A stretch of 64,000 nucleotides of DNA from Candidatus Shapirobacteria bacterium (GCA_043817235.1 JBDRHA010000007.1:73212-137211); one strand, 5' to 3'. Positions 1 through 37,548 are shown, numbered from the stretch's first letter. The notes: generated by a model not told the origin, from the sequence alone. Program-made: numbers and translations.

Positions 1-1044
1 GAAAAAAGATCAGGTTTAAAAGATGAAGAAACCCGCTTTCGCCAAAGGTATTTAGAGCTGGCCATAGATCCAGAATTAAGAGAACTTTTTCGTAAAAAAG
101 CACTATTTTGGCAAACAATTCGGAATTTTTTGCTTAAAAAGGGATTTTTAGAAGTAGAAACTCCGGTTTTGGAAAATATTACTGGGGGTGCGGATGCCGA
201 TCCTTTTATTACCCATCATAATGCCTTGGATATTGATCTTTATTTGCGGATTTCTATGGGTGAGCTTTGGCAAAAGAGGCTGCTAGTTGGAGGTTTTGAG
301 AAAACTTTTGAGCTTGGCCGCCAATTTCGCAACGAGGGAGTTAGTTTTGAGCATCTTCAAGATTATACCCAAATGGAATTTTACTGGGCTTATGTTAATT
401 ATCTATCTGGCATGGAACTAGTGGAGGAAATGTATAAGGAAGTGGTAAAAAAAGTTTTTGGAAAAACCAAATTTGATATTGGTAAATTTAGTGTTGATTT
501 TGGCCGAAAGTGGGAAAAGATTGACTATGTTTCTAGAATTGAAAAAGAGCTAGGAATCGATGTTCTTAAGGCTGGCAAAAAAGAAATTCAGCAAAAGTTA
601 AAAAGCCTTAGGGTGGATTTTGATAATCATGAGAGGAAGGGAAGACTGATTGACAAGCTTTGGAAACAAATTCGGGTTAAAATTGCCGGCCCAGCTTTTT
701 TAGTTGACCATCCGGTGGAAGTTTCACCCTTAGCCAAAAGAAAGAAAGAAAACCCGGCTTTGGTGGAGCGTTTTCAAGTGATCTTGGCTGGCTCGGAAAT
801 GGGCAATGGCTACTCTGAGCTTAATGATCCAATTGATCAAAAAGAGCGCTTTGAAGAGCAGGCGGCGATGCGTAAAGAGGGAGATAAAGAGGCTCAAATG
901 GCGGATACTGATTTTGTGGAGGCTTTAGAGTATGGTATGCCGCCGGCCTGTGGATTTGGCGTTTCGGAGAGATTATTTTGTTTCTTGGTTGATAGGCCAG
1001 CGCGGGAATGTGTCTTTTTCCCATTATTAAGGCCTAAAAAATGA
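1..1044 (+). CDS. lysS: Lysyl-tRNA synthetase (class II), 5'-truncated by the window edge
   Basis: The reading frame is open from nt 1 (..RYLELAIDPELRELF..), and the catalytic core carries class-II motifs (FRNEG, GMELVEEMY..., C-terminal GGFG). It ends in TGA at 1042-1044. Confidence 0.9.
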   Translation, partial: EKRSGLKDEETRFRQRYLELAIDPELRELFRKKALFWQTIRNFLLKKGFLEVETPVLENITGGADADPFITHHNALDIDLYLRISMGELWQKRLLVGGFEKTFELGRQFRNEGVSFEHLQDYTQMEFYWAYVNYLSGMELVEEMYKEVVKKVFGKTKFDIGKFSVDFGRKWEKIDYVSRIEKELGIDVLKAGKKEIQQKLKSLRVDFDNHERKGRLIDKLWKQIRVKIAGPAFLVDHPVEVSPLAKRKKENPALVERFQVILAGSEMGNGYSELNDPIDQKERFEEQAAMRKEGDKEAQMADTDFVEALEYGMPPACGFGVSERLFCFLVDRPARECVFFPLLRPKK

Positions 1045-1602: not shown

Positions 1603-2864
1603 ATGCTAGATCCAAAATATATTCGGGAAAACAAAGAAAAAGTTGAGATAGGGGTAAAAAATAAAGGTTATGGTGAGGAATTAGTGAATCATTGGTTAAA
1701 AATTGACCAAAAATGGCGCAAGCTTTTAGAAAAAATAGAGGCCTTAAGGGCAAAAAGAAATAAGCTCAACGAGGTATTAAAGAGCCGCCAAGGAAAACCT
1801 CCGGCGGATCTTTTAAAACAAGGAAAAACATTAAAAAATGAGCTGATTCAAGAAGAAGAAAAGCTGGCTATAATAGAAAAAGATTGGAAAAAAGCTCTGT
1901 GGAAAATTCCAAACATTCCGGCTGATGATGTTCATGTTGGCCGGAGCGAAAAGAAAATAAAGTAGTTGAGACTTGGGGAAAAACTCCGAAATTTTCTTTT
2001 GGGCCCAAAGATTATCATGAATTAGGGAAAAAATTAGGTCTTGTTGACGTAAAAAGAGCCAGCAAGGTATCAGGCAGTCGTTTTGGGTATCTAGAAAAAG
2101 AGGCTGTTTTTTTGGAATTCGCTCTAGTTCAGTTAGCCTTGGAAACCCTAGTCCCAGAGGGATTTATTCCGGTAATTCCGCCCGTTTTAATTAAAAAGCG
2201 AATGGAGGCGGCTTTAGGTTATGCCGAGCATGGCGGTTGGAAAGATATGTATGAATTAAAAGAGGACGGTTTAGTTTTAGTAGCTACGGCCGAACATTCA
2301 TTAGCCGCCATGCACGCTCAAGAAACAATTGATGAGAGAAAACTTCCTTTGCGTTACATTGGATTTTCCACCTGCTTTCGTAGAGAAGCTGGATCTTATG
2401 GCAAAGATACTCGAGGAATTTTCCGGGTTCACCAGTTTGATAAAGTAGAGATGCTAGCTTTAACTAAGCCCGAGAATTCCGATAAGGAGCATGAATACTT
2501 GGTTTCTTTAGAAAAGAAATTGATGCAATTACTAGAACTTCCACACCAAGTAGTGAAAATGTGCACGGCGGATTTAGGTCAGCCAACAGTGCGAAAGTAT
2601 GATATAGAAACCTGGTTTCCGAGCGAAAAAAAATATCGGGAAACTCATTCTTGCAGCAACTGTACTGATTATCAATCTCGCCGATTAGGGATTAAGTATC
2701 AAGGGCAAGGAAAAACAAGCTATGTCCATCTTCTTAACGGAACGGCTTTTGCTGTTGGCCGGACTATTTTGGCGATTTTGGAAAATTATCAGCAGAAAGA
2801 CGGCAGCGTTCTTGTTCCTCAAGTTCTCCAAAAATGGATGGGAAAAGAGAAAATAGCTGCTTGA
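1603..2864 (+). CDS. serS: Seryl-tRNA synthetase, interrupted by an apparent 1-nt frameshift in an A-rich run near 1945-1962
   Basis: The 1603-1965 ORF is the SerRS N-terminal coiled-coil arm (..IPNIPADDVHVG..). The catalytic domain (VVETWGKTPKFSFGPKDYHELGKKLGLVD.. FSTCFRREAGSYGKDTRGIFRVHQFDKVE) continues in another frame from about 1962. The track ORF 2112..2864 is the tail of that second frame. Confidence 0.85.
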
Positions 2865-2880
2865 GTGCTATAATTTAGGG

Positions 2881-5583
2881 ATGTTTAATAAGCTAAAAAA
2901 TTTGTTTGACTATAATCGAAAAGAGATTGGACGCCTGAATAGAATAGTGGGAGAAATAAATAAGTGGGAGCCTCGGATCAAAAAGCTTTCAGACATCAGG
3001 TTAAAAGCCAAAACCGCTGAATTCAAAAAGAGAATTGTTAAGGGTGAAGCGGTGGAGAGTTTGCTTCCCGAAACTTTTGCGGTAGTGCGGGAAGCGGCCA
3101 GCCGGACTTTAGGTCAGCGCCATTATGATGTTCAATTAATGGCCGGAATTGCTTTATTTGAAGGGAAAATTGCCGAACAAAAAACTGGAGAGGGAAAGAC
3201 TTTAACAGCTACTTTGCCGCTTTATTTGCGAGCCCTAAAAGGAAAAGGCGCTCACTTAGTAACGGTAAATGATTATCTGGCTCGTATTGGCACGGGCTGG
3301 ATGGGGCCAGTTTATGATTATTTAGGTTTAACTACAGGGTGCATTATTCCCCAGGAATCTTTTCTTTTTGACGCTTCTTATAAAGGCCAGTCCTCAGATT
3401 GGCGTCTTAAGCGCTTAAAGCCAGTTGAAAGAAAAGAGGCTTATCTTGCTGATATTACTTATGGAACAAATAATGAATTTGGTTTTGATTATCTTCGCGA
3501 TAATATGGTTCAGGGCTTAAGCGTCATGGTTCAACGAGGTCACGCTTATGCGATTGTGGACGAAGTGGATTTTGCTTTGATTGATGAGGCGCGTACTCCC
3601 TTAATCATTTCTTCTCCGGCCGGCGACTCCAGCCGGGAATACCACCAATATTCTTCTTTGGCGGCAGAGCTTTTGTCAGAATCAGACTATATTATTGACG
3701 AGAAGGAGAGATCAGCGGTTTTAACTGAGTTTGGGATTAGGAAAGTAGAGCGTAAGCTTGGGGTAAACAATCTATATGAAGAAGACTTTGAAACTATTCA
3801 TCACATTGAAAATGCGCTTAAAGCGAGAACCTTGTTTCAAAAAGATAAAGATTATGTAATCAAAGATGGGCAGGTAATTATTGTGGATGAGTTTACCGGC
3901 CGGCTGATGCATGGCCGACGCTGGTCAGATGGTTTGCATCAGGCAGTAGAGGCTAAGGAGGAAGTTTCCATTCAGCAGGAGAGCAAAACCTGGGCAACGA
4001 TTACCTTTCAAAATTATTTTCGCTTATATAAGAAGCTCGCCGGAATGACTGGAACTGCGGCAACAGAAGCAGAAGAATTTAAGAAGATTTATGATCTCGA
4101 TGTAGTAGCAGTGCCAACCAATAAACCGGTAGTTAGAGAAGATTATCCGGATTATATTTATAAAAACCAGCGGTCTAAGTATGCGGCTATAGCGGCTGAA
4201 ATTCAAAAGTGTTATGAGTGCGGCCAGCCGGTTTTGGTGGGAACTACCTCGATTGAAAAAAATGAGCTTGTTAGCCGGTATTTAGCAAAAAAGAAAATTC
4301 CTCACCAGATACTAAATGCCAAGAATCATGAGAAAGAAGCGGAAATTATTGCCGAAGCAGGAAAAGTAAAAGCGATAACCGTAGCCACAAACATGGCGGG
4401 CCGAGGGGTGGATATTATCTTGGGAGGGGAAAAACCAGAAAAAACTAAAAGCAAAAAACTAAAAGCAAAAAACGAGAAAGAATGGGAAAAGGAACACGAA
4501 AAAGTAATTAGACTAGGAGGATTGCATGTAGTGGGGACGGAAAGACATGAGGCGCGCAGGATAGATAATCAGCTTAGGGGCCGCTCCGGCCGCCAAGGTG
4601 ATCCAGGGTCCTCGCGTTTTTTTGTCAGCTTGGAGGATGACCTAATGCGAGTTTTTGGCGGTGAGCAAATTTCCAACTTAATGACTCGATTTAAAATGCC
4701 TGAAAATATTCCTCTTTCCCATCCAATGGTCTCCCGGGTTTTAGAGCAGATTCAAATTAAAGTTGAAGGATTTAATTTTGATATTCGGAAAAGCTTAGTG
4801 GAGTATGACGATGTAGTAAACAAACAACGGGAAATAATTTATTTAAAAAGAAAGGCAATTTTAACTAATTATGATAAAAAACCAAAGAAGCTAAGAAAGG
4901 AAGTTTTGAAAATCTTAAAAAAGGAAATTAAAGAAAATGTTTCTTTTAGTTTAGATTCGATTAGCTTGGAAATAGATAGAGGAAAGTTGGTTTTGGGCTT
5001 TTGGGAGATATTGCCGGTGGAAGAAGAGAGTGAAAGAGAAAGAATCAGGAAAAAAATTAAAGGCAAAAACGAGGAAGGAATAAAAAATATTCTTTGGTCT
5101 TTAGCTAAAGAATTTTATCAGGAAAGAGAAAAAACTTTTGGCCCAAAAGTTGCTCGAGATATTGAAAAATCTGTTTATTTACATACCCTAGACAATCTTT
5201 GGGTGGATCATTTAACCTCTTTGGATGACCTTAAAGAGGGTGTGCGCTTGCGCGGCTATGGCCAGCGTGATCCTTTGGTAGAATACCGAAAAGAAAGTTT
5301 TGATCTTTTTCAGAAATTATTGGCCAATATTGAGTATCACTTAGCCCGAAGGATCTTAAAAATTAAAGTCCAAATGACAATGCCGGGCACAAGCCAAACA
5401 GTAGAGAGCCGGGGGCAGATTATTTCTCCTCAGGCAGAGAAGAAAGAGGAGCTTAGGCCGAGTGGTAATCAAAAAGTGAGGCCGGTAATTTCCGGCAAAA
5501 AAAAGCCAGGTCGAAATGACCCTTGCTGGTGCGGGTCAGGCAAGAAATATAAGAAGTGCCACTATCCCCAAACTGCCGATTAA
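2881..5583 (+). CDS. secA: Preprotein translocase ATPase SecA
   Basis: The 900-aa protein has the DEAD-like motor motifs (GEGKTLTATLP, DEVDFALIDEARTPLIIS) and the C-terminal zinc motif CWCGSGKKYKKCH. Confidence 0.95.
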   Translation: MFNKLKNLFDYNRKEIGRLNRIVGEINKWEPRIKKLSDIRLKAKTAEFKKRIVKGEAVESLLPETFAVVREAASRTLGQRHYDVQLMAGIALFEGKIAEQKTGEGKTLTATLPLYLRALKGKGAHLVTVNDYLARIGTGWMGPVYDYLGLTTGCIIPQESFLFDASYKGQSSDWRLKRLKPVERKEAYLADITYGTNNEFGFDYLRDNMVQGLSVMVQRGHAYAIVDEVDFALIDEARTPLIISSPAGDSSREYHQYSSLAAELLSESDYIIDEKERSAVLTEFGIRKVERKLGVNNLYEEDFETIHHIENALKARTLFQKDKDYVIKDGQVIIVDEFTGRLMHGRRWSDGLHQAVEAKEEVSIQQESKTWATITFQNYFRLYKKLAGMTGTAATEAEEFKKIYDLDVVAVPTNKPVVREDYPDYIYKNQRSKYAAIAAEIQKCYECGQPVLVGTTSIEKNELVSRYLAKKKIPHQILNAKNHEKEAEIIAEAGKVKAITVATNMAGRGVDIILGGEKPEKTKSKKLKAKNEKEWEKEHEKVIRLGGLHVVGTERHEARRIDNQLRGRSGRQGDPGSSRFFVSLEDDLMRVFGGEQISNLMTRFKMPENIPLSHPMVSRVLEQIQIKVEGFNFDIRKSLVEYDDVVNKQREIIYLKRKAILTNYDKKPKKLRKEVLKILKKEIKENVSFSLDSISLEIDRGKLVLGFWEILPVEEESERERIRKKIKGKNEEGIKNILWSLAKEFYQEREKTFGPKVARDIEKSVYLHTLDNLWVDHLTSLDDLKEGVRLRGYGQRDPLVEYRKESFDLFQKLLANIEYHLARRILKIKVQMTMPGTSQTVESRGQIISPQAEKKEELRPSGNQKVRPVISGKKKPGRNDPCWCGSGKKYKKCHYPQTAD

Positions 5584-5589
5584 TTATCT

Positions 5590-6365
5590 TTCTTATCAAC
5601 CTCGGGAGTTGATTATCCTTGCAACCTCGGAATTTTTATTCATTAGTTAAAAATTCAATTTTTTTGAGTTCTTTTTGATAATCTTTTCTGTTAAAGACGA
5701 AATCTTTATAATTTTTAGACTTGTTGTGAGAAATAATTATTTCTTTTTTGCATATTTCTTGATTGTTGCTTAAATATTCCTGCAGCGAAGACCAAGGATA
5801 ATTTTTTAGTTGTTTTGAAGTATTTACTATTGCTGAGGAATATGGATTAAGGTGTATATATCGAGTAAGATGAAGAAGCTGCTCTTCATTGTTTACTAAA
5901 ACGGCCTTAAATCTGCCCTGAAAAAGTGGCCCAAATTTATCTTGCTTTTTGTTAAAATACCTTGCATATCCGTTTTGTACAGTAGCCATTAATTTTGATA
6001 TGCCATCATTTCTGTTTTGTTTTAAAAGAACATGGAAGTGGTTGGGCATTAGACAATAACAGATAATATCTGCATATTTAATATCTTCCTTTGAAAGATT
6101 TCTTAGGATTTTCTGTCTTTCTTCACTTTTTAAGATTAAAAATTTAGAATAACTACCAGGATGGTCTGAATGTTGATAGTAACTAAGCAGATCTTTAAAT
6201 CTTTGATAATCTCTCTTGCTTAAAAATATTGGCTGGCCATTGCTGCCGCGATTATAAACATGATAGTAGTAGTTAGTTACTAGAGGCAAAAATCTTCCTG
6301 GCATAGGTCAAAGATAACATCATAATTCCGATGTTGCAATAGCAATCAACTCCCGAGGTTGACTG
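5590..6365. mobile_element. IS200/IS605-family element (Y1 transposase only, possibly RAYT-like) bounded by palindromic hairpin repeats
   Basis: A transposase gene is flanked by mutually inverted hairpin sequences, ATCAACCTCGGGAGTTGAT (about 5596-5614) and AATCAACTCCCGAGGTTGA (about 6340-6358). A second, imperfect pair lies inside these (TTGCAACCTCGGAAT versus ATTCCGATGTTGCAA). Confidence 0.65.
5636..6304 (-). CDS. tnpA: HUH-type Y1 transposase, IS200-like / REP-associated tyrosine transposase family
   Basis: An HUH motif (..MPNHFHVLL..) and a catalytic tyrosine region (..LTRYIHLNP..) are present; the N-terminal YHVYNRG.. is typical of IS200 TnpA. At 222 aa it is longer than canonical IS200 TnpA. 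Confidence 0.7.
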   Translation of the reverse strand: MPGRFLPLVTNYYYHVYNRGSNGQPIFLSKRDYQRFKDLLSYYQHSDHPGSYSKFLILKSEERQKILRNLSKEDIKYADIICYCLMPNHFHVLLKQNRNDGISKLMATVQNGYARYFNKKQDKFGPLFQGRFKAVLVNNEEQLLHLTRYIHLNPYSSAIVNTSKQLKNYPWSSLQEYLSNNQEICKKEIIISHNKSKNYKDFVFNRKDYQKELKKIEFLTNE

Positions 6366-12258: not shown

Positions 12259-13413
12259 ATGCCCAAGGGATGGATTTTTATTTTCTTCGTGATACTGCTG
12301 TTATTTCCGATAAAAAGTTTGGCAGTCTCTGACTTAATTTTATATAAATTTAGTTCTTTTTCTTCCCCCGACTGGATAGAAATCAAAAATATTAGTGAAG
12401 AGAGTATTTCTTTAAATAATTATTCGTTAGAGGATGAGGCTGGAAACAGGAAGACAAATTTTGACTGCTTTTTAAATTCAGGAGGAATTTATGCTGTTGA
12501 TTTTAGTAACTGGTTAAATAACGGCGGAGACGCTATCTATTTAAAAGATGTCGACGGAGTTATTGATTGTGCTGCTTATGGAGATAGCGAGTGTCCAGGC
12601 GAAAATCCATTAGATTTTGAGGAAGACAGTGATAACAAATATGGTATTTGGAATGGGGTAAGTTGGGAAATTACTGATGATTCCGGCAAAGCTGAAAATT
12701 CGGCTTGCGAAGTATTGCAGAATACTCCGGTTGTTGCTCCGACGCAAGTAAATACACCGACAGTATCTTCTAGTGGCAATTTTAAAATCAACGAGGCCAA
12801 GGATAGCGATGGTGGGAATATTTCTAACGCTAAGATATATGTGGATGATGTCTATACCCATCATTACGCTCCGGAAGATTTAGGGTTTTGCGATGGTTGT
12901 GATTGCAACAGTGGCGGAGAAGCTAGTTGCGGCTACGGCCAGCATAATATTAGGTTGACTAAGGACGGATATCAAGATTGGTAGCAAACAGTAACAATTA
13001 ATTCTGGGAATAATTATGAGGTTGATCCGATTTTAACTAAAGAAACCCCCACCTCCACTCCAACGCCTTCGTTTACGCCGACACCAACAATTAAGCTAAT
13101 AACTACCACTCCCAAAGCTTCTTTGACGCCGGCCTTGTCGCCTACTCCGACAGCAGATAGCGACTTAACCCCGACCTTAAAAGATGAAATTTCTTTATCG
13201 GTAACAAAAGAAAGTGGCCAGGCCGGCGAAATTTTGGGCGAAGCAAAGGAAGGAGAGAAGTCTTTCGGCTCAGTGAAAAACAAGAAAATTTTGGCTGGCG
13301 GCTTTATTGGCTTGGGCGGCGGCCTGATAGTGGCTGCTTCTTTGGCCGGAAACAAGAAGAAGCAAGAGAAAGCTGATTTTGATACAATGGAAGATAATGA
13401 AGACGAAAGCTAA
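12259..13413 (+). CDS. Secreted LTD (lamin-tail-domain) surface protein with Cys-rich module, PT-rich linker and C-terminal TM anchor, interrupted by a single in-frame TAG at 12982-12984
   Basis: There is a signal peptide (MPKGWIFIFFVILLLFPIKSLA) and an LTD-like segment (SPDWIEIKNISEESISL...NNGGDAIYLKDVDGVIDCAAYG). The same frame is open from 12985 to 13413 and encodes a PT linker followed by ILAGGFIGLGGGLIVAASLAGNKKKQEK. The track splits this into 12217..12984 and 13123..13413. Confidence 0.5.
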
Positions 13414-13801
13414 AAGAGCACTTCGCTTTTTAGGGCCAATCTTGTGGATGGCTTTTATTTTTTATCTTTCCTCGCGGCAAAGAATTGCCGTAAGCTCGAA
13501 CTACTGGCTGAGCTTTTTTATTTTCAAAACTTTGCACATAATAGAATATGGGATCCTTTTTTTCTTTTGGTATTCGGCCCTTTACGATCGAAAGGATAGA
13601 TTGCGATTAGCGATTATTTTTTCTTTTCTTTATGCAGTATTTGACGAACTGCACCAAAAATTTGTTCCTACTCGGGAAGGAAAAGTGCGGGATGTTTTTA
13701 TTGATTTATTAGGGATAATTATTTTTTGGCAGGTATTTTTAAATAGGTTGGAAAAAACAATAATTAAAATACCTATTCTTAAAAATATTCTCCCCTCCTG
13801 A
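13379..13801 (+). CDS. VanZ-like family membrane protein
   Basis: A VanZ signature is present (..AVFDELHQKFVPTREGKVRDVFIDLLG..) with four TM segments. Confidence 0.7.
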   Translation: MIQWKIMKTKAKRALRFLGPILWMAFIFYLSSRQRIAVSSNYWLSFFIFKTLHIIEYGILFFFWYSALYDRKDRLRLAIIFSFLYAVFDELHQKFVPTREGKVRDVFIDLLGIIIFWQVFLNRLEKTIIKIPILKNILPS

Positions 13802-13925
13802 GTCTATTTGAGGTCTTAATATCCAGTTGACAAAGCACTGAATAGTTTTTAGGATATAGGTTAGAAGAATTAGCACTTAAGATAAAGACAAATAGTTTAT
13901 GAAGTCGGATATTTTATTTATTATC

Positions 13926-13958
13926 GCCGTCCAGCATTAATGCTTGGGCGGTTTTTTT
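13926..13958 (+). terminator. Rho-independent terminator-like hairpin plus T-run
   Basis: CGCCGTCCAGCAT-TAA-TGCTTGGGCGG is followed by TTTTTTT, sitting downstream of the VanZ-like gene and upstream of the SD GGAGGTG. Confidence 0.5.
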
Positions 13959-13976: not shown

Positions 13977-14618
13977 ATGAAAAGAATCTTAACAAGTTTA
14001 TTTGTAATTGGGGTTGTGGCGGGTGTAATTACTAGTGCAACCAGTGCCTATTTTGCCGACGAGGGTGAAATTCAGGGTGTAACTTTTTCTACAGGCAATG
14101 CTGATTTGCAAATGACTCAGGTGTATATGCACAATTGGTATGCAGACAATGCATCTGCTGCGGATTTAGATATCCATCTTCCGGATGATCTTTACCCGGG
14201 CTATGAGGGAAGCTGGGGCAGCCCTGATGGGGCGATTTATTTGGGTAATTTTAGCGGCTCGCCGATTGATTTAACGGTGAGCGCTAGTATTACGAACTAC
14301 GCTGAAGATGTGGCTGGATTGGGCGATACGATTAAATTAGCCATGGCTTGGGGTGGAAATTGTGATAATCTGGGAGCGGGCACGGGCTTTCATGCTCTGT
14401 CTTGGTGGCAGTCTCACTCGGAAGATCTTTTTACTTATATTTCCGGCTCGGCCGACCCTGCTACCTGCGGCTTTATCCCCAATGAGCATTCTGGTGGTTA
14501 TGGAGGGTACGCAAGAGCCTTAAAGTTTTTCTTGAAAGTTCCGAACAATGCTGGGGATGAAATAGCCAATGGCGTGGCTTCGTTTAACATCCATTTTGAC
14601 GCCGAGCAAATGCATTAA
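13977..14618 (+). CDS. SipW-cognate-class secreted protein (TasA/camelysin-like)
   Basis: The SD GGAGGTG is followed by an ATG at 13977. The signal peptide ends in the SipW-cognate motif TSAYFADE, and the gene lies directly upstream of a SipW-type peptidase. Confidence 0.6.
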   Translation: MKRILTSLFVIGVVAGVITSATSAYFADEGEIQGVTFSTGNADLQMTQVYMHNWYADNASAADLDIHLPDDLYPGYEGSWGSPDGAIYLGNFSGSPIDLTVSASITNYAEDVAGLGDTIKLAMAWGGNCDNLGAGTGFHALSWWQSHSEDLFTYISGSADPATCGFIPNEHSGGYGGYARALKFFLKVPNNAGDEIANGVASFNIHFDAEQMH

Positions 14619-30257: not shown

Positions 30258-30335
30258 CGGAGCGTAGCGCAGTTGGATTAACGCGCCCCGATCGGGTCGG
30301 GGAGATCGCGGGTTCGAGTCCCGCCGCTCCGACCA
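30258..30335 (+). tRNA. tRNA-Pro (anticodon CGG), genomically encoded CCA
   Basis: Manual cloverleaf folding gives an acceptor stem CGGAGCG/CGCTCCG, an anticodon stem CCCCG/CGGGG with loop AUCGGGU (U33, anticodon CGG, G37), a T-arm GCGGG-TTCGAGT-CCCGC, and a 3' ACCA. Confidence 0.8.
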
Positions 30336-30588
30336 TACAGGACAAAGCCCTTGTCCATAAAGTCTTTGAAGGGTTGATTTAGCTGATATGAAGCCACTTT
30401 CTTATCTTTCAGAGTAAAGTTCAAGAAGATTTTGGAGATAATCTCATCCTTACCTTGCATAGGCTTTGTTTTCCTCAAGACATCGGGCAATTGTTTGAAA
30501 AGTTCGACAAACTCAGAATACTTGTAAATAAAGGTCTCGTTAGCTTTGAGAGCCTGTTTAATCTTAGTAATTTTATCTTCAATATCTT

Positions 30589-32025
30589 TTAATTCCTTGT
30601 CCTTGGCCATAAGGTCTTTCTTAAAGATAGTCCTAAACTCCGATTCTTTCTCCTCTCCTCAAGTATTATGTTTTTAATATCTTTAATTCTTTTGTCAACG
30701 CCTCTTTTTTGCGCCTGTAGAGAGCGCAAGAGACTATCTAACTCCTTTTTCTTTTCTCTACCAACCTTCTTCATTTCTTTGACATAATGGTCGTAAATAT
30801 CCTTTGAAGCGAAATTGAATTTATCCAAAAAGTCATAAACAAAATCTAAAACAACTCTAGCCCTGACATTATGCTTAACCTTCCTGCCTGATTTTTGCTT
30901 GATTGGCTTGCACCCTTCCATGTCACATCTGTAAAAGTAATACCACTTTTTGTCATCTTTAGTTTTCTTTGAGGTTAAGCCTGAGCTCATGGGTTGGCCA
31001 CAATGTCCACAAATAACTTTACCCCTGAGAAAATCTGCTTTTGTAGCACCTAATCTTGTCCCCCTAATCTTTGACTTAAAGACTTTGGTTATGTCACTTA
31101 ATTTGTTGACACTTAAAAACTCTTCAACAGTAACTATCGGAACATAGTCGTAGACCTCAACAAGGTTAGCGACATGCTTGCCTTGGCCATACTGCATAAC
31201 ACCAGCATAGAAAGTATCCTTGAACATCTCTGATAGCCTTTTAACATTCATTTCAAATGGCTTGTGTGTAATCTTGCCTATACCATAAGCTCTGTGATAA
31301 TTCTGGTCTGTTAAATACTCTGAAATCTCGGCAAGAGTCTTGTTTTCAAGGCGCATTAACCAAGCCTTCTTGATTAAATGGAAGTTATTACCATCTGGTC
31401 TTAGTAGTTGGTTTCTGTCTCGATAGTACCCATGCTTGGCGGTAGTAAGCCACTTACCTTCTTCAATACTTCTTCTAATGCCTCTAGTGACAACATCGCT
31501 AAGCTGGTCTGAGTATTGTTTAGAAAGGACAAAAGCAATCCCTAGCAACATCTTGCCAGAGGCATTGTTATCAAAAGTAAAATTGACAAATTGAAGGTCT
31601 TTGATAATTCCCTTATCAAGTAGGTCGATAATTTCGCCAGCATCTCGCATGTTGCGACTAAGACGGTCTGGGTGCCAACAAATAACACCATCAAACTTAC
31701 CACCATTAAGGTCATCAATCATTTTTCTGAACCGAGGTCTTATGTTTGGTTCTTTGGCGCTTTCGCTTTCTCTAATTGGCCTGCCGACTACGGTTAGGTT
31801 CCGATTCTCAGCCATCTGTTCACAATCGGCTATCTGGTCTCCAAGGCTCCGAATCTGCCTTTCCTCACTTTCAGTGCTTTTTCTGGCATAGATAACATAA
31901 CGGAATTGAGTAGGGTCTTTAACCTCGCTCTCACCTCTAATGCTTTTAAGAAGATTGGCAAGGTCTGCTGGTGTATGAGCAGGTTTATCATTCATGTTCG
32001 TAATTCTCTTAATTCTCATGCTCAA
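30589..32025 (-). CDS. Large serine recombinase (phage-integrase type)
   Basis: The resolvase catalytic domain has the YARKSTESEERQ serine motif. A recombinase domain and a zinc-ribbon (CGHCGQPMSS...YYFYRCDMEGC) follow, with a C-terminal coiled coil. The protein may continue in another frame (see findings). Confidence 0.85.
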   Translation of the reverse strand: MSMRIKRITNMNDKPAHTPADLANLLKSIRGESEVKDPTQFRYVIYARKSTESEERQIRSLGDQIADCEQMAENRNLTVVGRPIRESESAKEPNIRPRFRKMIDDLNGGKFDGVICWHPDRLSRNMRDAGEIIDLLDKGIIKDLQFVNFTFDNNASGKMLLGIAFVLSKQYSDQLSDVVTRGIRRSIEEGKWLTTAKHGYYRDRNQLLRPDGNNFHLIKKAWLMRLENKTLAEISEYLTDQNYHRAYGIGKITHKPFEMNVKRLSEMFKDTFYAGVMQYGQGKHVANLVEVYDYVPIVTVEEFLSVNKLSDITKVFKSKIRGTRLGATKADFLRGKVICGHCGQPMSSGLTSKKTKDDKKWYYFYRCDMEGCKPIKQKSGRKVKHNVRARVVLDFVYDFLDKFNFASKDIYDHYVKEMKKVGREKKKELDSLLRSLQAQKRGVDKRIKDIKNIILEERRKNRSLGLSLRKTLWPRTRN

Positions 32026-32313
32026 AAAAACAAAAGAGCTTAGTATCAGTATAACTCAAAAACTACTTGATGAACAAAGCCAACAACGCTAACCGATAGT
32101 AATCCTATAATGGTTGACTAAAATGATGTTATTTGATATATTACTAGGGTAAATTGGCCTTACTCAGTAAAGCTTAATTGTTCTTTAACATATCCCTATA
32201 GCAGAGAGAATTGTGTGTATTGACAGCCCACTAAATGCTGTGGAGCAACAGTCTATACTCACTGACTCTTTGTTATTTTTCGGTTCAATCCAAAACCACA
32301 CAGGAGGTGTGAA

Positions 32314-32562
32314 ATGGAAGGTCAAGTAATGCTTGATGCCGTGTCTGTCACTGTTGGAGTTGTTACTCTTGTGTTGATTCTGGCCCATATGTTCACCAAG
32401 AACAAAAACAATACCCTCGCGACGATGAAGGTGGTTTTTATGGTGGTAATGGCCATTCTCAACGTACTCGATGCAGACATTTTCTTCACAGTCCTCTGGA
32501 CAATTCTGGCTTGTCTCAATATCGTGTTGATTGCCATACGCATCAACACCAAAAGCCAGTAG
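32314..32562 (+). CDS. Small two-TM membrane protein (hypothetical)
   Basis: A strong SD (ACAGGAGGTG) lies 6 nt before the ATG, and the product has two hydrophobic helices. This + ORF is preferred over the overlapping minus-strand ORF 32185..32652, which has no RBS and is Cys/His-rich with low complexity. Confidence 0.45.
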   Translation: MEGQVMLDAVSVTVGVVTLVLILAHMFTKNKNNTLATMKVVFMVVMAILNVLDADIFFTVLWTILACLNIVLIAIRINTKSQ

Positions 32563-32955
32563 GCCGAACAGTAACACAAAGGAGCAAGGAGTAGGTTCAC
32601 ACCTACACGATACACTTAACTGTATATCGTCATCACTTGCTCCATTTTTCATACAAAAAATTAGAAAATAAAGAATTGAAGAAAAGTGTCATAATATGCG
32701 GGTAGAAAATTGACACAGACTCTTGCTTCAAAAGAGTACCTCTAAGAGTTCTTAACCTTAAATACAGCAAAACTAAAAGAGTTAGACAGGATTTAGCAAA
32801 ATTGACCCTCTCAAAGCACATCCCAACATATGAAAATGCCTCATATGATGAGGGAAATTCAAAGACAGTTAACGTGGTTCAACTACATAAAAATCTAAAC
32901 CCTGGCATACCCCCATACTATGGTTCGATGACTTTTAGGCTAATACAAAAGAAGG

Positions 32956-33312
32956 CTATTTTTTGATTACTTTGAGCTTGGGTGAAACATACTCAACTTG
33001 TTCTTCAACAACAATCTGCACATACTCATCACCAGATTCTCTAATAACTTTGATTTTTGATTTAGGTGGCTTATCAACTCTAGACATATTAATACCACTC
33101 AAGCTTTTTTGTACCTGAGACAAAGTAACCTTGGTTCCATCTGGAAGCAAAACTTCATAATCAGACATATTGGGTGGCACATCAGGAGCTACAATCTTGG
33201 GTGTTTTAGGCTCTGAAACGCTCCCAGAAGGCTTCTGAGCTGGTTTGGCAGTCTCTGGCTTTATCTCATCCACTAAGTCGGTTAAGTTGTCTTTTTTGAC
33301 TTTCTGGTTCAT
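32956..33312 (-). CDS. Hypothetical protein (Pro/Lys-rich N-terminus)
   Basis: A 118-aa ORF with no recognisable domain. Confidence 0.35.
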   Translation of the reverse strand: MNQKVKKDNLTDLVDEIKPETAKPAQKPSGSVSEPKTPKIVAPDVPPNMSDYEVLLPDGTKVTLSQVQKSLSGINMSRVDKPPKSKIKVIRESGDEYVQIVVEEQVEYVSPKLKVIKK

Positions 33313-33501
33313 ATATCAAGTATAGCTTTTGGGAGTTCAAAATCAAAGCACAACCTGATTGTAAAAAGGCTTAACTGGTATTCTCTGGATATGCTGATAG
33401 GTAGCCTTTAATCTCTGGTTGTATTTGGTTAACTCATCTAGTTGATTTATAATACTGTCATAAAGTTCAAGATAAGTTTCTGAACGTCGACACAAAGTCG
33501 C

Positions 33502-35727
33502 GTGTTTTTTACTGTTTTGACCAGTCTAAACACTAAGAAAATGGACAACGAATCAACACCTATTTCTCCCAGGGAAACTGAAAAACAGTCACGGTTCAAA
33601 TTTGCTCTTAGGAGCTTGCGAAGAAGCTCAGCAAGAGATATTGGAATTTATGATACTGTATCTAATTTAAGAGATATAAAAGAAAATATAGATCGTTTAA
33701 CAAAAGAGGAGCGGGAGGCGGCCAGAATAGCACTTAAAAAAATTCTTATTATTCTGCCGCCATGGCGGAGAGGTGCGAATTTTGTTGTTCAAAACCTTGA
33801 AAATGTAGCTTATACTCCAGAGGAACAAACGAACTTGGTCCAACTAAGACAAGAAGCGCTAGCAAGGCAGGCCCAAGTCGAGCAAGAAATAGCAGAAGGG
33901 GCTTCCCCTTGGTTGGCTAGGGTGAAACATAATGAACAAAATGCCCAAAATCCAGTTGCGGTTGGGTTTTACCAAATGCCAGATGGTCAAATAAGAACTA
34001 TTTTTGGCCGGCGATATTTTCAGTCTAAAAGACAAATAGAAACCAAGGACTTGTTTTTTGGCGGACGGAGTGAGGGCAAGGAAGTAGGCCTGCTTTCTAC
34101 AAAATTTCAAGCTGTAGTTGAGCAAGAACTTATAAAAAGTAAACTTTTTGATTTATTGCCCGAGGATTTAAGAGAACGATTCGGGAGAGGAGAAATTTTA
34201 ATAACTGGGAAACAAGACCTCTACGATTTAAGCGAAACTGAAATTGAAAGTTTAGCTGCAAGCACAGACATTGATGCTCTTGCTAAACATATTGAAAAGA
34301 AAATTGCCAGTGCCGGAAAAGAGGGACAATATTACCTGCTTTTTCAAAATGAATATCTCGATGATGAAACTGGTCGGACTGGAGTTTTGATGATTATTAA
34401 AAACGGAAAGGCAGAACCCGTGATCATTATAGTGGGAGATAAACAGTTTGTGGTTGAGATAAAGGGTTGTGGGAAAAAGGGTGGTGGATTTGGCCGAATG
34501 CACCACCGCACCGGAAGAGATATTATTACTGGTGGTGCAGAAAGAGAACAAGCGATAAATGAATTTGACCGACTATCTGAGATGACAGACGAAGATGCGC
34601 CAAAAGCTGTTGCGAGTATTCTTTTTGATAATCACGGCTATCAGCAGGGATATATATTGAGACTAACGCCTTCAACCGTTAGGGCTTCCTACTCAGGTAA
34701 CGAGGTTTATCCTGCCATAGATAGCCATGAACAAGTTTCTAGAGTATTAGATATTTATGCACAGGAATTGGCTCGACAGGTTTTCGCATCAAATCCGAAA
34801 ATTTTAGATCGTTCATCACACTCGGAAAATATTTTACTTTGGGGAGACGGAAAGCATACTTTTACTGATTTTTCCGATCATGTTGCGTTTTCTGATAATC
34901 ACTTTCCTCACGAAGAAAGCCATGGGGGCTATATGACACCACGGCAAATGCTTGAATATTATGTAAAAATGGTAGAGGAAATTCCCGGGTACAATGCTGA
35001 AAGAGATAAAAAGGTATTCCTCGAAGCATTGGGAAAAGCATTTGCCGCAGAAGGCTGCGATGTTTCTCTTGATGAAGCAGAGGGATATGTCGATATAACA
35101 AAAAGATTGTGGGAGGGCGGAATAGCTTATCAAGTTTTCTCTGCAAAGCGAACGAACAATTATAGAGCAGATGGTGTTGTGGAGGAGTTTAGAGAATCTG
35201 TTACTACCGATGAATATCATCAAAGAGAATTGTCTTTAGCGTCTGAACAAGCATTTGTTGAAAAATACGAAAATGGATTTCAAAAAATGCTCACAGCGCT
35301 TGATATTCTTCAAAGAGTTAGTGCTCCTGAAGTAGCAGATATTCGTGGATTGGCAGAAAATAGAGACTTGTCGGGATTGTTAAAAAATCTTGATAGGCTT
35401 TTTACCATGCTTGGCGAGAGCAAAGAAAATCTCAGTAAAAGCGAAAGAAGCAGCATATATCAAGCAATATTTTATTTTTCTGGTTTAGAATATACTTTGG
35501 CAAGAACAGTGAGGCGATATTTAGAGCATGAGCATGATGTTGTCTCTTCTGCACGAAATTCCGCTCCAGCAAGTGATAAAATAGCCTTAGCCAAAGCAAG
35601 AAACGAAATTGATGGCAAGAAGCAAGAACTTGAGACAATTTTAAACAATCCAAACGAATTGTTCGATAAGTTCACTGATATAAGTTGGGTTCAGAGATTT
35701 ATATCATTAAGTTTTTATCAAAACTGA
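33502..35727 (+). CDS. Large hypothetical protein (741 aa) with a glycine-rich loop GCGKKGGGFG ... HHRTGRDIITGG; no family assignable by eye
   Basis: A long uninterrupted ORF in the tRNA/recombinase island. It has an N-terminal coiled-coil region and a central segment (..IIIVGDKQFVVEIKGCGKKGGGFGRMHHRTGRDIITGG..) reminiscent of a nucleotide-binding P-loop or kinase G-loop. An alternative start is at 33541 (MDNEST). Confidence 0.5.
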   Translation: MFFTVLTSLNTKKMDNESTPISPRETEKQSRFKFALRSLRRSSARDIGIYDTVSNLRDIKENIDRLTKEEREAARIALKKILIILPPWRRGANFVVQNLENVAYTPEEQTNLVQLRQEALARQAQVEQEIAEGASPWLARVKHNEQNAQNPVAVGFYQMPDGQIRTIFGRRYFQSKRQIETKDLFFGGRSEGKEVGLLSTKFQAVVEQELIKSKLFDLLPEDLRERFGRGEILITGKQDLYDLSETEIESLAASTDIDALAKHIEKKIASAGKEGQYYLLFQNEYLDDETGRTGVLMIIKNGKAEPVIIIVGDKQFVVEIKGCGKKGGGFGRMHHRTGRDIITGGAEREQAINEFDRLSEMTDEDAPKAVASILFDNHGYQQGYILRLTPSTVRASYSGNEVYPAIDSHEQVSRVLDIYAQELARQVFASNPKILDRSSHSENILLWGDGKHTFTDFSDHVAFSDNHFPHEESHGGYMTPRQMLEYYVKMVEEIPGYNAERDKKVFLEALGKAFAAEGCDVSLDEAEGYVDITKRLWEGGIAYQVFSAKRTNNYRADGVVEEFRESVTTDEYHQRELSLASEQAFVEKYENGFQKMLTALDILQRVSAPEVADIRGLAENRDLSGLLKNLDRLFTMLGESKENLSKSERSSIYQAIFYFSGLEYTLARTVRRYLEHEHDVVSSARNSAPASDKIALAKARNEIDGKKQELETILNNPNELFDKFTDISWVQRFISLSFYQN

Positions 35728-35770
35728 TTACTCTAAAAAAACTACTAGATGAAAAAGGAGGTGATTAATT

Positions 35771-36235
35771 ATGATTAACCCAGAAGGTAAAGAACGCCAA
35801 GCTTCAGAATTTGATAATATTTTATCTGGGATTGATAGAAAAAAAGAATTAATAGATAAAGAATTTCAAGAAAGAAGGAAAGCGGCTGATTCTTTAGTTA
35901 GAGTTATGGATGATATCCTTCCAAAAGAAGGATCGTCAGCCATGATGGGCCCATTCAAATTTATTCCGGCTACACTCTTGAAGGAGGGTGTGACGATTGA
36001 AAGATGCACTGGTCTTTATCCTCCCATAGGCGAGAGAGTACTTAATTATGAGGTTCGTTTGGCAACAGGGCGATCAAATAGAGAGGTTTTCATTGTATCT
36101 AGAGTTAATGAAGAGACAACCGTGCCTTTAATTCTTGATGTTGGGCAGGATCAATATGGGCGACCCATGGATAAATTTAGAATCGCTTCAGTAGAAGAGA
36201 CAGAGGGAGTTAGAGAAATAGTCAGTAAGCTGTGA
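35771..36235 (+). CDS. Hypothetical protein (154 aa), likely co-transcribed with the 741-aa gene
   Basis: A perfect SD (AAAGGAGGTGATTAATT) precedes the ATG, and the gene starts 43 nt after the upstream stop. Confidence 0.5.
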   Translation: MINPEGKERQASEFDNILSGIDRKKELIDKEFQERRKAADSLVRVMDDILPKEGSSAMMGPFKFIPATLLKEGVTIERCTGLYPPIGERVLNYEVRLATGRSNREVFIVSRVNEETTVPLILDVGQDQYGRPMDKFRIASVEETEGVREIVSKL

Positions 36236-36537
36236 AGGGCCGACTTTTTGAGAGTATTCGCCAAGCTGTTTCCCAGATTCCTCAAGGCAAAGTGGCAACA
36301 TATGGGCAAGTGGCTCGGTCGGTGGGAACGAAAGATGCGCGAAAAGTTGGCTGGGCAGTTTACGGCAACAAAGACCCGGAAATTCCCTGCCACCGGGTAG
36401 TAAAAAAAGGCGGCTATTTAGCGGAAAACTTTTCCGCTGGCGGGTGGAAAGAGCAAAAAAGAAGATTAAAAAAAGAAGGGGTAAAATTTAAAAAAAATAA
36501 TCAAGTTAATTTAGATCTTTGCTCTTGGGAAATTTAA
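36232..36537 (+). CDS. MGMT-family protein (O6-alkylguanine-DNA alkyltransferase DNA-binding domain only)
   Basis: A helix-turn-helix (VATYGQVARSVG) and an intact PCHRVV active-site motif are present. At 101 aa it consists of a single domain. It uses a GTG start overlapping the upstream stop. Confidence 0.7.
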   Translation: MKGRLFESIRQAVSQIPQGKVATYGQVARSVGTKDARKVGWAVYGNKDPEIPCHRVVKKGGYLAENFSAGGWKEQKRRLKKEGVKFKKNNQVNLDLCSWEI

Positions 36538-37548
36538 GTTTGGTAGACGATCCAAGAGATCTAAGTTTTTGACAAATTCTTTTCTTTGAAATTTGAAGTA
36601 ACCTGTAATGGCAATCATAGCCGCATTGTCAGTTAAAAGAGAGGGAAGGGGGATAAAAACAGGGAAGTTGTTTGCATCACCAACTTTTTTGACCTCTTTT
36701 TGCAGAAGCTGGTTATTAATAACTCCGCCGCCTAAAAATATTTGCTTCGGTTTGGTTTTTTTAATAGCCAGCTGTAATTTCAAAATAATGGAGTGAACCA
36801 AAACTCTTTCAAAGGATGCAGAAAAATCGGCTAAAAATCTTTTATCTTTTAGTTTTCTTTTAGGAATTTTTCTTAATTTATAAAAACAAGCGGTTTTTAA
36901 ACCGGAAAAACTGAAGTTTAGACTTTGAGAGCGGGCCATTGGGATCGGTAAATCAAATTTTAGTGGATTGCCCTGGGCCGCTAACTTAGAAATTTCCGGG
37001 CCGCCGGGATAAGGAAGGTTAAGCATTTTTGCCACTTTATCAAAAGCTTCACCGGCTGCATCGTCTAAAGTTTCTCCAAGAAGCTGATACTGACCGATTT
37101 TTTCCATCAATACTAATTGCGTATGACCGCCGGAAACAAGTAATCCGAGAATTGGATATTTTATTTTAAAATTTTGAGCTAAGCAGGAAAGAAAATGGCC
37201 TTCCATATGATTAATTGCCAGCAAGGGCTTTTGATATTTTCTGGCTAATTCTTTTGCTTTTTTTAAGCCTACTTCCAGAGCAATTGATAAACCGGGACCT
37301 TGAGTAACCGCAATAGCCTGAATATCCTGCCAGTCTTTATCGGCTTTTTTAAGGGCCTGCTTAATTACCGGGTTAATCTTTTTTTCATGCTCTCTTTTGG
37401 CTAAATTAGGAACTACTCCGCCCCAGGGCTGGTGAATTTTTATTTGCGAGTAAATAATGTTACTTAGTACGCGTTGTCCTTGGGTGACTGCAGCTGCAGT
37501 TTCGTCGCAAGAAGTGTCGATGCCGAGTATAATAATTTTGCTTTTCAT
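36511..37548 (-). CDS. tsaD: tRNA N6-adenosine threonylcarbamoyltransferase
   Basis: The protein reads GIDTSCDETAAAV ... AINHMEGHFLSCLA ... SGGVINNQLL, matching the Kae1/TsaD family. Confidence 0.9.
   Translation of the reverse strand: MKSKIIILGIDTSCDETAAAVTQGQRVLSNIIYSQIKIHQPWGGVVPNLAKREHEKKINPVIKQALKKADKDWQDIQAIAVTQGPGLSIALEVGLKKAKELARKYQKPLLAINHMEGHFLSCLAQNFKIKYPILGLLVSGGHTQLVLMEKIGQYQLLGETLDDAAGEAFDKVAKMLNLPYPGGPEISKLAAQGNPLKFDLPIPMARSQSLNFSFSGLKTACFYKLRKIPKRKLKDKRFLADFSASFERVLVHSIILKLQLAIKKTKPKQIFLGGGVINNQLLQKEVKKVGDANNFPVFIPLPSLLTDNAAMIAITGYFKFQRKEFVKNLDLLDRLPNLNFPRAKI

Follow-up and report, generated by a model that had tools for sequence, protein, structure and literature searches.

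A SelO-like kinase-fold gene as the probable main cargo of a recombinase-bearing islet at tRNA-Pro in Candidatus Shapirobacteria

The window analysed here, a stretch of 64,000 nucleotides from an uncultured member of Candidatus Shapirobacteria (CPR/Patescibacteria), contains a small recombinase-bearing islet at a tRNA-Pro gene. Its meaningful cargo is probably one SelO-like gene of the NMP-transferase type, belonging to a family that is mobile at tRNA-Pro; we put the probability of this reading at about 0.6. We infer that a large serine recombinase placed the islet directly after the CCA end of tRNA-Pro(CGG), which would have split an ancestral tRNA-Pro/tsaD junction and left the recombinase gene at the attachment end. 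The functionally meaningful cargo would be a single stand-alone gene for a 728-aa enzyme, and the family would move as cargo of small elements aimed at tRNA-Pro 3' ends, in close relatives behind an XRE-type HTH gene with which it would share an operon. Possible roles for the enzyme are those of a stress or regulatory modifier, or of a toxin or defence effector.

An integrated island adjacent to the tRNA had been proposed in a sequence-only reading of this DNA, and comparison with three close relatives lacking the insertion proved it real. The tRNA-Pro(CGG) gene that served as integration target (30258–30335, + strand; ARAGORN, Rfam tRNA 54 bits) encodes its CCA, and the island begins directly after it. 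In the relatives (L038, L039 and L040), the segment between tRNA-Pro(cgg) and tsaD is absent, and the tRNA gene lies 0–7 nt from the tsaD 3' end or overlaps it; therefore, the segment from 30336 to ~36503 is a genuine insertion of ~6.17 kb (6.2 kb). The right boundary is formed by tsaD itself (36511–37548, − strand; PF00814, 8e-91), a chromosomal flank outside the island. TsaD is 73–75% identical to its orthologues in the three relatives, where the order tsaE/GT2/372-aa/GT2/PMT_2 is kept in this flank. From the relatives' junction alignment and the sequence, the left junction was placed at ...CCGACCA/TACAGG and the right junction approximately at ...AATAATCA/AGTTAATTTAGATC (the slash marks the junction), the two having only the dinucleotide CA in common. 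No long att direct repeats flank the island, and a tRNA-end repeat sought in the window was not found, which is compatible with the action of a serine integrase. The GC content was 0.390 for the island versus 0.386 for the remaining window. Synteny with the relatives does not extend to the left flank of tRNA-Pro(CGG), so this hotspot may have undergone serial insertions or rearrangements.

The N-terminal part of the large serine recombinase is a 478-aa ORF (30589–32025, − strand) with the Pfam domains Resolvase (2e-23), Recombinase (1e-6) and Zn_ribbon_recom (2e-7). It matches a PHROG integrase at 4e-58, and its translation carries the catalytic Ser in a YARKST motif (YARKSTESEE). Three-frame translation located the frame-shifted C-terminal part at 30278–30660 (− strand; 110-aa ORF at 30278–30610), where it crosses the left junction and runs antisense into the tRNA-Pro gene. 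The full-length frame is not intact, owing to a frame change in a purine run near 30640–30660, possibly an assembly error; because the gene appears frameshifted, the islet may be immobilised. A recombinase had been noted near the tRNA and is present, but the orientation described as divergent is in fact convergent, the 3' ends of the two genes facing each other. The window recombinase is 41.5% identical to a recombinase at locus L003, which abuts tRNA-Pro beside a member of the 728-aa family; the 110-aa ORF matches a C-terminal fragment of that recombinase, and this fragment likewise ends inside a tRNA gene, tRNA-Pro(tgg).

Compared with known tRNA-targeting islands that carry large serine recombinases (phage-type integrases; CcrAB and XisF-type excisases), the islet has the same Resolvase, Recombinase and Zn-ribbon architecture, an integrase gene at the attachment end, insertion at a tRNA 3' end, and no long direct repeats, as a 2-bp crossover predicts. 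By contrast with these islands, it is very small (6.2 kb), is devoid of phage, conjugation and mobilisation genes, has a frameshifted recombinase frame reaching into the tRNA, and resides in a CPR host.

The principal conserved cargo is the SelO-like kinase-fold gene at 33541–35727 (+ strand; ORF 33502–35727). Its product had been taken to be 741 aa long; counted from the ATG at 33541, where the deposited annotation and every homologue start, it has 728 residues. An AF2 model of the protein (pLDDT 91.9, pTM 0.88) returned only kinases and pseudokinases in Foldseek, YdiU among them, and the nearest structure was SelO, with 255 of 728 residues aligned at 12% identity. The modelled core shows a protein-kinase-like fold closest to SelO. 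Sequence methods gave no significant SelO match for the protein: Pfam SelO (PF02696) was unmatched at E ≤ 0.1 by it and by 12 distant members, and hhalign probabilities between the family and SelO sequences were 0.3–2%. The family profile matches the GAK catalytic loop and DFG (E 9e-4), with Ser at the position of the HRD Asp. Among 87 sequences with identities as low as 15%, E341, R381, N430 and D443 never vary, while at least 90% share K308, R374 and P377. The KGxG...RxxPSxxR motifs are in register with E. coli SelO, and the predicted catalytic set comprises K308, E341, R374/R381, E429-N430 and D443. In SelO, which binds ATP in a flipped orientation and has a mutated HRD, the corresponding roles are described for Lys113, Glu136, Arg176, Arg183 and Asp262 (PMC8097203); these residues were mapped onto the 728-aa protein by motif alignment and not by inspected superposition. 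The glycine-rich stretch KGCGKKGGGFG, earlier likened to a nucleotide-binding loop, comes after the beta3 lysine of the kinase-like fold and is no P-loop.

The nearest known system is the AMPylating/UMPylating pseudokinase SelO/YdiU (PF02696; PDB 6EAC, 6K20). Shared with it are a kinase-like fold that lacks the HRD Asp, a KGxG after the beta3 Lys, a conserved alphaC Glu, an acidic residue and Asn in the catalytic loop, a DFG-type Asp, and an arginine pair seven apart in RxxPSxxR, comparable to Arg176/Arg183, which in SelO holds the gamma-phosphate of the flipped ATP (PMC8097203). On the other hand, the SelO HMM is unmatched, identity is only ~12%, and the protein has 728 residues versus ~480, with an extra N-terminal helical domain (residues 10–130), a beta-rich domain (about 139–300) and a long C-terminal helical domain (480–728). 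The catalytic loop reads SSH(T/S)EN versus HGVxNTDN in SelO, and the spacer to the Asp is four residues longer. The C-terminus (...SLSFYQN) contains no conserved Cys, unlike SelO with its redox Cys/Sec, and the family is rare and mobile whereas SelO is nearly universal. Taken together, the SelO-like fold and active-site features suggest that the enzyme would bind ATP or another NTP in a flipped orientation and transfer NMP to a protein or other nucleophile (AMPylation/NMPylation).

The 728-aa family is rare and unannotated, its named close members are CPR bacteria, and it was not found in any phage, plasmid or IMG/VR record. The closest homologues of the window protein are 75–80% identical to it, and homologues at 70–80% identity occupy unrelated neighbourhoods; adjacent genes include IS fragments, recombinases, and Phd/ParE or MazE genes. 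Given this rarity and these varied settings, at tRNA-Pro and beside mobile or toxin–antitoxin genes, the gene does not look like an ordinary housekeeping enzyme held in synteny, in keeping with the earlier proposal. Adjacency to tRNA-Pro was seen in 8 of 24 distinct contexts, involving the cgg, ggg and tgg anticodons; a binomial estimate for 6 of 22 contexts was ~4e-5. Because the family recurs at tRNA-Pro genes of three anticodons, it looks like a mobile cargo targeting tRNA-Pro. In L022 (CGACCAATCTAA) and L041 (CGACCA), the element is delimited by direct repeats of the tRNA end, and minimal elements such as L008 consist of the family gene plus a conserved flank of 200 nt that ends in a tRNA-like CGACCA, with nothing else. 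Since several of the tRNA-Pro loci are without a recombinase, and the family gene has a locally conserved chromosomal setting in L001, L005 and L036, the window recombinase may not be the mover of the 728-aa gene.

It is unlikely, though worth weighing, that the SelO-like protein is a mobile single-gene or HipBA-like toxin, which would NMPylate or phosphorylate an essential target and arrest growth upon phage attack or loss of the element. An XRE-HTH gene of 66–68 aa ends 2–11 nt upstream of the family gene in the close relatives L006, L021, L022 and L042, which is the hipB-hipA layout. The family's patchy occurrence, its mobility and its position at integration hotspots, with Phd/ParE and MazE genes nearby, point the same way, as does the presence of the kinase-fold domain within giant multi-domain proteins. 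However, the HTH gene is missing from the window copy, L001, L008 and others, the protein matches neither PADLOC nor HipA in Pfam, and the family gene lies in a locally conserved chromosomal context in some lineages (L001, L005 and L036). In contrast to HipBA, in which an XRE-HTH antitoxin is paired with a kinase-fold toxin, the 728-aa enzyme is also twice as large and is SelO-like as opposed to PI3/4K-like. More broadly, the suggestion that the island serves defence or addiction drew no support from PADLOC-DB 2.0, where none of the seven island proteins had a match at E ≤ 0.1, or from the surroundings, where no defence-gene neighbourhood was found; it is still a guess, and a defence or toxin role of the cargo is possible.

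The kinase-like fold might instead belong to a conventional phosphotransferase, that is, a protein or small-molecule kinase of the WaaP, RIO, Bud32 or APH type and no NMP transferase, which we consider rather unlikely. A bolder version of the preferred reading, in which the family represents a new class of mobile single-gene NMP-transferase effectors in CPR, acting as toxins or defence factors and XRE-HTH-regulated in the relatives, is a long shot. Were its more radical form true, the target of the effector would be linked to the adjoining tRNA-Pro 3' end, for example through nucleotidylation of tRNA or a translation factor, or through a role in the element's own site-specific insertion.

The 728-aa gene could also be a long-standing chromosomal neighbour of tRNA-Pro, perhaps with a functional link to it, and only the recombinase segment from 30336 to ~33400 would then be mobile. 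In L001, L008, L041 and L042, the family gene indeed lies 75–450 nt downstream of tRNA-Pro on the same strand and without a recombinase; the window gene keeps that orientation, and its identity to the closest homologues resembles that of TsaD. We nevertheless regard this as improbable, as the interval from tRNA-Pro(cgg) to tsaD is empty in the three closest relatives, the tRNA-Pro genes concerned are three different isoacceptors in unrelated neighbourhoods, and in L022 and L041 the gene is enclosed by direct repeats of the tRNA end. In L003, moreover, the gene runs in the same direction as the recombinase and opposite to the tRNA.

tRNA-gene islands frequently bear defence genes, and the sequence-only reading had seen a tightly coupled pair in the 728-aa gene and the 154-aa gene that follows it (35771–36235, + strand; codon-usage score +0.183), which would make the two an anti-phage defence or addiction module on the island. 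The two share a strand and lie 43 nt apart, the second has the strong Shine–Dalgarno sequence attributed to it (AAAGGAGGTGA), and both lie on the integrated island with host-like coding statistics. Yet the 154-aa protein matched only itself, without a homologue in 5.8 billion protein clusters or near any other family member at the related loci, and no partner gene is conserved beside the family gene in 25 loci. With no PADLOC match either, this pairing is very improbable, and as a conserved module it is largely refuted. The AF2 single-sequence model of the 154-aa protein was poor (pLDDT 48). The stop of the 154-aa gene overlaps the start of the following MGMT-like gene (GTGA), and the 154-aa gene looks coupled to that gene instead; it would be a lineage-specific ORFan co-transcribed with the MGMT-like gene, and no partner in a conserved system.

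A final alternative, scarcely credible, is that the enzyme ligates a small carboxylate by adenylation, in the manner of the IucA/IucC NIS siderophore synthetases. These use ATP for adenylation, have a kinase-related fold and were the second-best fold match of the 728-aa protein, but the IucA/IucC Pfam match is absent, siderophore, transport and substrate-supply genes are missing from every context, and CPR genomes as a rule have no such pathways.

The distal edge of the island is the MGMT-like gene (36232–36537, + strand), recognised earlier as a single-domain gene before tsaD. Its 101-aa product matches PF01035 (DNA_binding_1, E 4.8e-22) and TIGR00589 (46.9 bits versus a cut-off of 46.4) and has the active-site Cys in a PCHR motif (IPCHRVV); the N-terminal MGMT domain is missing, and the last ~11 codons cross the right junction into tsaD antisense.

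The lack of family annotation among the cargo, first noted by inspection, held in four HMM libraries, and the minor features described between the recombinase and the 728-aa gene were all recovered. The hydrophobic 82-aa ORF (32314–32562, + strand; from the ORF list), preceded by an AGGAGG Shine–Dalgarno sequence, had no family match in Pfam, PADLOC, PHROG or NCBIfam; its codon-usage score was +0.05, well below the host mean (0.186), and its coding status is uncertain. The stretch from 32563 to 32955, described as non-coding, contained neither a convincing ORF nor an Rfam match. The 118-aa gene (32956–33312, − strand) was without a match in Pfam, PADLOC, PHROG, NCBIfam, or the phage and IMG/VR collections, and had a codon-usage score of +0.205.

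What stands out in this stretch is a rare 728-aa SelO-like enzyme, a sequence orphan with a kinase fold, carried on elements of CPR bacteria (Patescibacteria) that target tRNA-Pro genes. The window derives from a MAG of Candidatus Shapirobacteria (locus tags ABIB61_02085/02090). The window copy lies in an island between tRNA-Pro(cgg) and tsaD, which we delimited by comparison with relatives lacking it. The nearest TsaD orthologues (73–75% identity) were found on three contigs from other genomes (L038, L039 and L040) that share the right-hand synteny of the window (tsaE, GT2/GtrA, a 372-aa gene, GT2, PMT_2 and a ~1050-aa gene). In all three, tRNA-Pro(cgg) is convergent to tsaD, on the opposite strand, and lies 0–7 nt from its stop or overlaps it (L038 11059–11133, L039 6857–6933, L040 2356–2432). 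The overlap in L040 is 22 nt, the last TsaD codons being antisense to the tRNA acceptor end. The corresponding gap in the window is 6.17 kb, and junction alignment placed the insertion point between ...CCGACCA (the tRNA end, 30335) and AGTTAATTTAGATC... (~36503), where the sequence of the relatives reads CCA-AAG. This comparison confirmed the tRNA-adjacent island proposed in the sequence-only reading.

The two window junctions share no more than the dinucleotide CA, and a search of the window for att repeats or a further copy of the tRNA end found none. CA-only junctions match the product of a serine integrase that crosses over at 2 bp, a crossover that we infer; the circular junction that would form from the island ends is ...AATAATCA joined to TACAGG.... 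The recombinase and MGMT-like ORFs each read through their own island junction, which fits genes that once adjoined attP. Island and host have equal GC content (0.390 versus 0.386), which makes a related CPR bacterium the probable donor. Synteny with the relatives was absent on the left side of the tRNA, and serial events at this tRNA-Pro hotspot are therefore possible.

The gene inventory of the sequence-only reading stood, apart from corrections to the orientation of the recombinase, which is convergent with the tRNA rather than divergent, and to the length of the large protein, which is not 741 aa but 728 aa from ATG 33541, a start shared with its database twin and every homologue. ARAGORN and Rfam agreed on a single tRNA-Pro(cgg) (30258–30335, +). 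It is followed by a 478-aa ORF of a large serine recombinase (30589–32025, −; Resolvase, Recombinase and Zn_ribbon_recom; PHROG 'integrase', 4e-58), the C-terminal continuation of which is a 110-aa ORF (30278–30610) running antisense into the tRNA gene. Beyond these lie a hydrophobic ORF of 82 aa preceded by an AGGAGG SD (32314–32562, +), ~390 nt in which neither an RNA match nor a convincing ORF was seen (32563–32955), a 118-aa ORF (32956–33312, −), the long ORF encoding the 728-aa protein (33502–35727, +), a 154-aa ORF preceded by AAAGGAGGTGA (35771–36235, +), an MGMT-type 101-aa ORF (36232–36537, +; PF01035 5e-22, PCHR motif), and tsaD (36511–37548, −). Codon-usage log-odds scores, trained on 29 long window genes, were host-like (mean 0.186) for the 728-aa (+0.188), 154-aa (+0.183) and 118-aa (+0.205) genes; the 82-aa ORF scored +0.05 and is a doubtful gene. 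An Rfam scan for structured RNA in 32563–32955 and the rest of the island matched the tRNA only, a promoter and terminator scan gave background level, and the 118-aa protein had zero matches in phage and IMG/VR collections.

Within the purine run GAGGAGAGGAGAAAGAA (30630–30670, − strand; near 30640–30660) the recombinase gene changes frame, and its C-terminal stretch of ~125 codons is read in the new frame into the tRNA-Pro gene; this reflects either a genuine, inactivating frameshift or an error of assembly. Locus L003 of another genome encodes a recombinase sharing 41% identity with that of the window; the L003 gene likewise ends within a tRNA-Pro gene and has a member of the 728-aa family adjacent. 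In L003, a DDE_Tnp_1 IS element (12456–13940) is inserted in this homologous recombinase gene, cutting off a C-terminal piece (14045–14329) that overlaps tRNA-Pro(tgg).

The 728-aa and 154-aa genes had been proposed as a two-gene defence or addiction module, which was rejected on the following grounds. The 154-aa protein matched only itself in a search of 5.8 billion clusters, and its single-sequence AlphaFold model was poor and uninformative (pLDDT 48). A tblastn search with all small island proteins against the family loci returned nothing, the 154-aa protein leaving no trace near any 728-aa homologue examined. When all neighbouring ORFs of 25 loci encoding 728-aa relatives were clustered, no conserved partner was found beyond sub-clade synteny, except serine recombinases in 3 loci, and no small ORF immediately upstream or downstream was kept across the family. 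PADLOC matched no island protein, and defence annotation sought with PADLOC, PHROG and NCBIfam returned nothing for the cargo. No new defence system is demonstrated here. The sole translational overlap (GTGA, 36232–36235) joins the 154-aa stop to the GTG start of the MGMT-like gene, suggesting that translational coupling links these two genes and not the 728/154 pair.

The 728-aa protein had no match in Pfam, NCBIfam, PHROG or PADLOC. Its homologues are scarce, forming 56 clusters at the 90% identity level, all about 720–750 aa, and those with names come from Shapirobacteria, Levybacteria or 'Patescibacteria'. A profile search run exhaustively over 1.84 billion representatives returned only 186 proteins. 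A phage or plasmid origin was rejected, as the family was absent from IMG/VR, INPHARED and PLSDB. The central ~300 residues recur in other architectures, including proteins of 2,500–4,700 aa and fusions with MutS_V, GNAT or ARMT1. Giant proteins with the kinase-like core include P0061 (2543 aa), P0086 (2897 aa; also GNAT, ARMT1-like and glpX-like domains), P0122 (4668 aa), P0155 (3082 aa) and P0176 (1475 aa; also a MutS_V ATPase), and Pfam searches of 12 distant or giant members identified unrelated accessory domains only (MutS_V, GNAT, ARMT1, glpX). In locus L011, the family gene has, 1.4 kb away on its downstream side, a gene for a MutS_V protein of 1199 aa.

An AlphaFold model built from a 32-sequence alignment was confident (pLDDT 91.9, pTM 0.88) and comprised an N-terminal helical domain (residues 10–130), a beta-rich region (139–300), a kinase-like core (about 300–480) and a long C-terminal helical domain. 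In a broader alignment of 87 sequences, down to 15% identity, E341, R381, N430 and D443 were invariant, and K308, R374, P377 and the glycines of KGxG..GG were at least 90% conserved. The profile of these 87 sequences matched the GAK catalytic loop and DFG (E 9e-4), with Ser at the HRD Asp position. Ideas of the chemistry open to the kinase fold were altered by SelO-type 'pseudokinases' and now include AMPylation and UMPylation, with RNAylation in the coronavirus NiRAN domain. The family motifs VEIKGCG, RLTPSTVRAS and SHSENILLWG...FTDFSD correspond to HLKGAG, RVAPSHLRFG and MNTDNMSLLG...LDYG of E. coli SelO. In SelO, Lys113, Glu136, Arg176 and Arg183 grip the gamma-phosphate of a flipped ATP, DFG Asp262 is catalytic, and the HRD Asp is missing (PMC8097203). 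This residue set, with the 7-residue Arg spacing, is likewise the conserved core of the 728-aa family. Compared with SelO, the family carries extra domains. Searches against E. coli SelO with hhalign and hmmsearch aligned the correct motifs with scores that were not significant; because sequence statistics alone fall short of proof, we call the protein SelO-like rather than a SelO family member. With moderate confidence, we propose that it performs nucleotidyl (NMP) transfer. The rival readings are a canonical kinase and an adenylating ligase.

A SelO-like family of this kind, structurally confident and sequence-orphan, would carry SelO chemistry into a new biological setting, with extra domains, named close members in episymbiotic CPR bacteria, and small elements aimed at tRNA-Pro genes. 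The accessory genes of CPR genomes are mostly unannotated, and the 728-aa gene is a concrete, clonable candidate for function assignment there. A preprint of 2026 that describes novel kinase-like families from oral bacteria makes no mention of SelO or Patescibacteria.

Homologues 70–80% identical occupied unrelated neighbourhoods: recA and pyrophosphatase (L008), the ribosomal protein L28 gene (L042), a TP_methylase gene and a Phd/ParE pair (L041), and DUF3800 and MazE genes (L006). Of 24 distinct contexts, 8 had a tRNA-Pro gene near the family gene, and together these covered all three anticodons (cgg in the window and L041; ggg in L008, L022 and L042; tgg in L001, L003 and L021); in 6 of these 8 the family gene lay downstream of the tRNA in the same orientation. 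A crude binomial calculation for tRNA-Pro adjacency, on the first 6 of 22 contexts, gave 4e-5. In the simplest reading, the family would be cargo of small elements integrating at tRNA-Pro acceptor ends, and the window copy would be one such integration, having come either together with its serine recombinase or by accreting in tandem with a recombinase element. The island is among few well-delimited CPR integrative elements, has an empty-site comparison available, and points to tRNA-Pro genes as CPR hotspots for serine recombinases. An XRE-HTH gene of 66–68 aa ends 2–11 nt upstream of the family gene in L006, L021, L022 and L042; because this operon hints at such a role, toxin or defence function of the 728-aa family is a possibility, and the most interesting reading remaining.

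A conserved GC-rich flank with two strong hairpins lies 3' of the gene in a clade of 70–80% identity. It is intact, at about 200 nt, in L006 (2447–2756), L008 (12101–12359), L021 (8416–8701) and L022 (9190–9398, with a second stretch at 5448–5601), shortened by an internal deletion in L041 (3777–3896), and recovered in part only for L023 and L042 (6179–6333). Where read (L008, L022, L041), its terminus is ...AGTAATTGCGAC(CA), which mimics the tRNA-Pro 3' end. The flank had no Rfam match, is absent from the window, and may act as an att arm or a terminator or encode an RNA. In L022, the 12-nt tRNA end CGACCAATCTAA is repeated at its outer edge, and an inverted 158-nt copy, 92% identical, directly follows the tRNA. 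In L041, the tRNA-Pro(cgg) end is fused to a 5'-truncated XRE-HTH gene cut at residue 27, and the element terminates in CGACCA. The truncated HTH gene (1585–1713) is followed there by a family gene (1719–3864) split into 604-aa and 125-aa pieces, and then by the Phd/ParE pair.

Minor observations were made at three of these loci. The two neighbour genes noted in L021 (1883–3460 and 5011–5823) encode a 525-aa N6-adenine methylase/restriction-like protein, on the 3' side of tRNA-Pro(tgg), and, upstream of the HTH-gene pair, a 270-aa protein that has the glycine loop GAGGTKKVFDV and is possibly another kinase-like protein. In L008, a CPR contig, the best Rfam RNase P model at 691–948 (+) was archaeal (RF00373, 106.8 bits, full length), not bacterial. 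In L006, the DUF3800 gene that comes shortly after the family gene has a DUF3800-IX RNA motif (RF02968, 53.6 bits) next to it, at 3544–3607.
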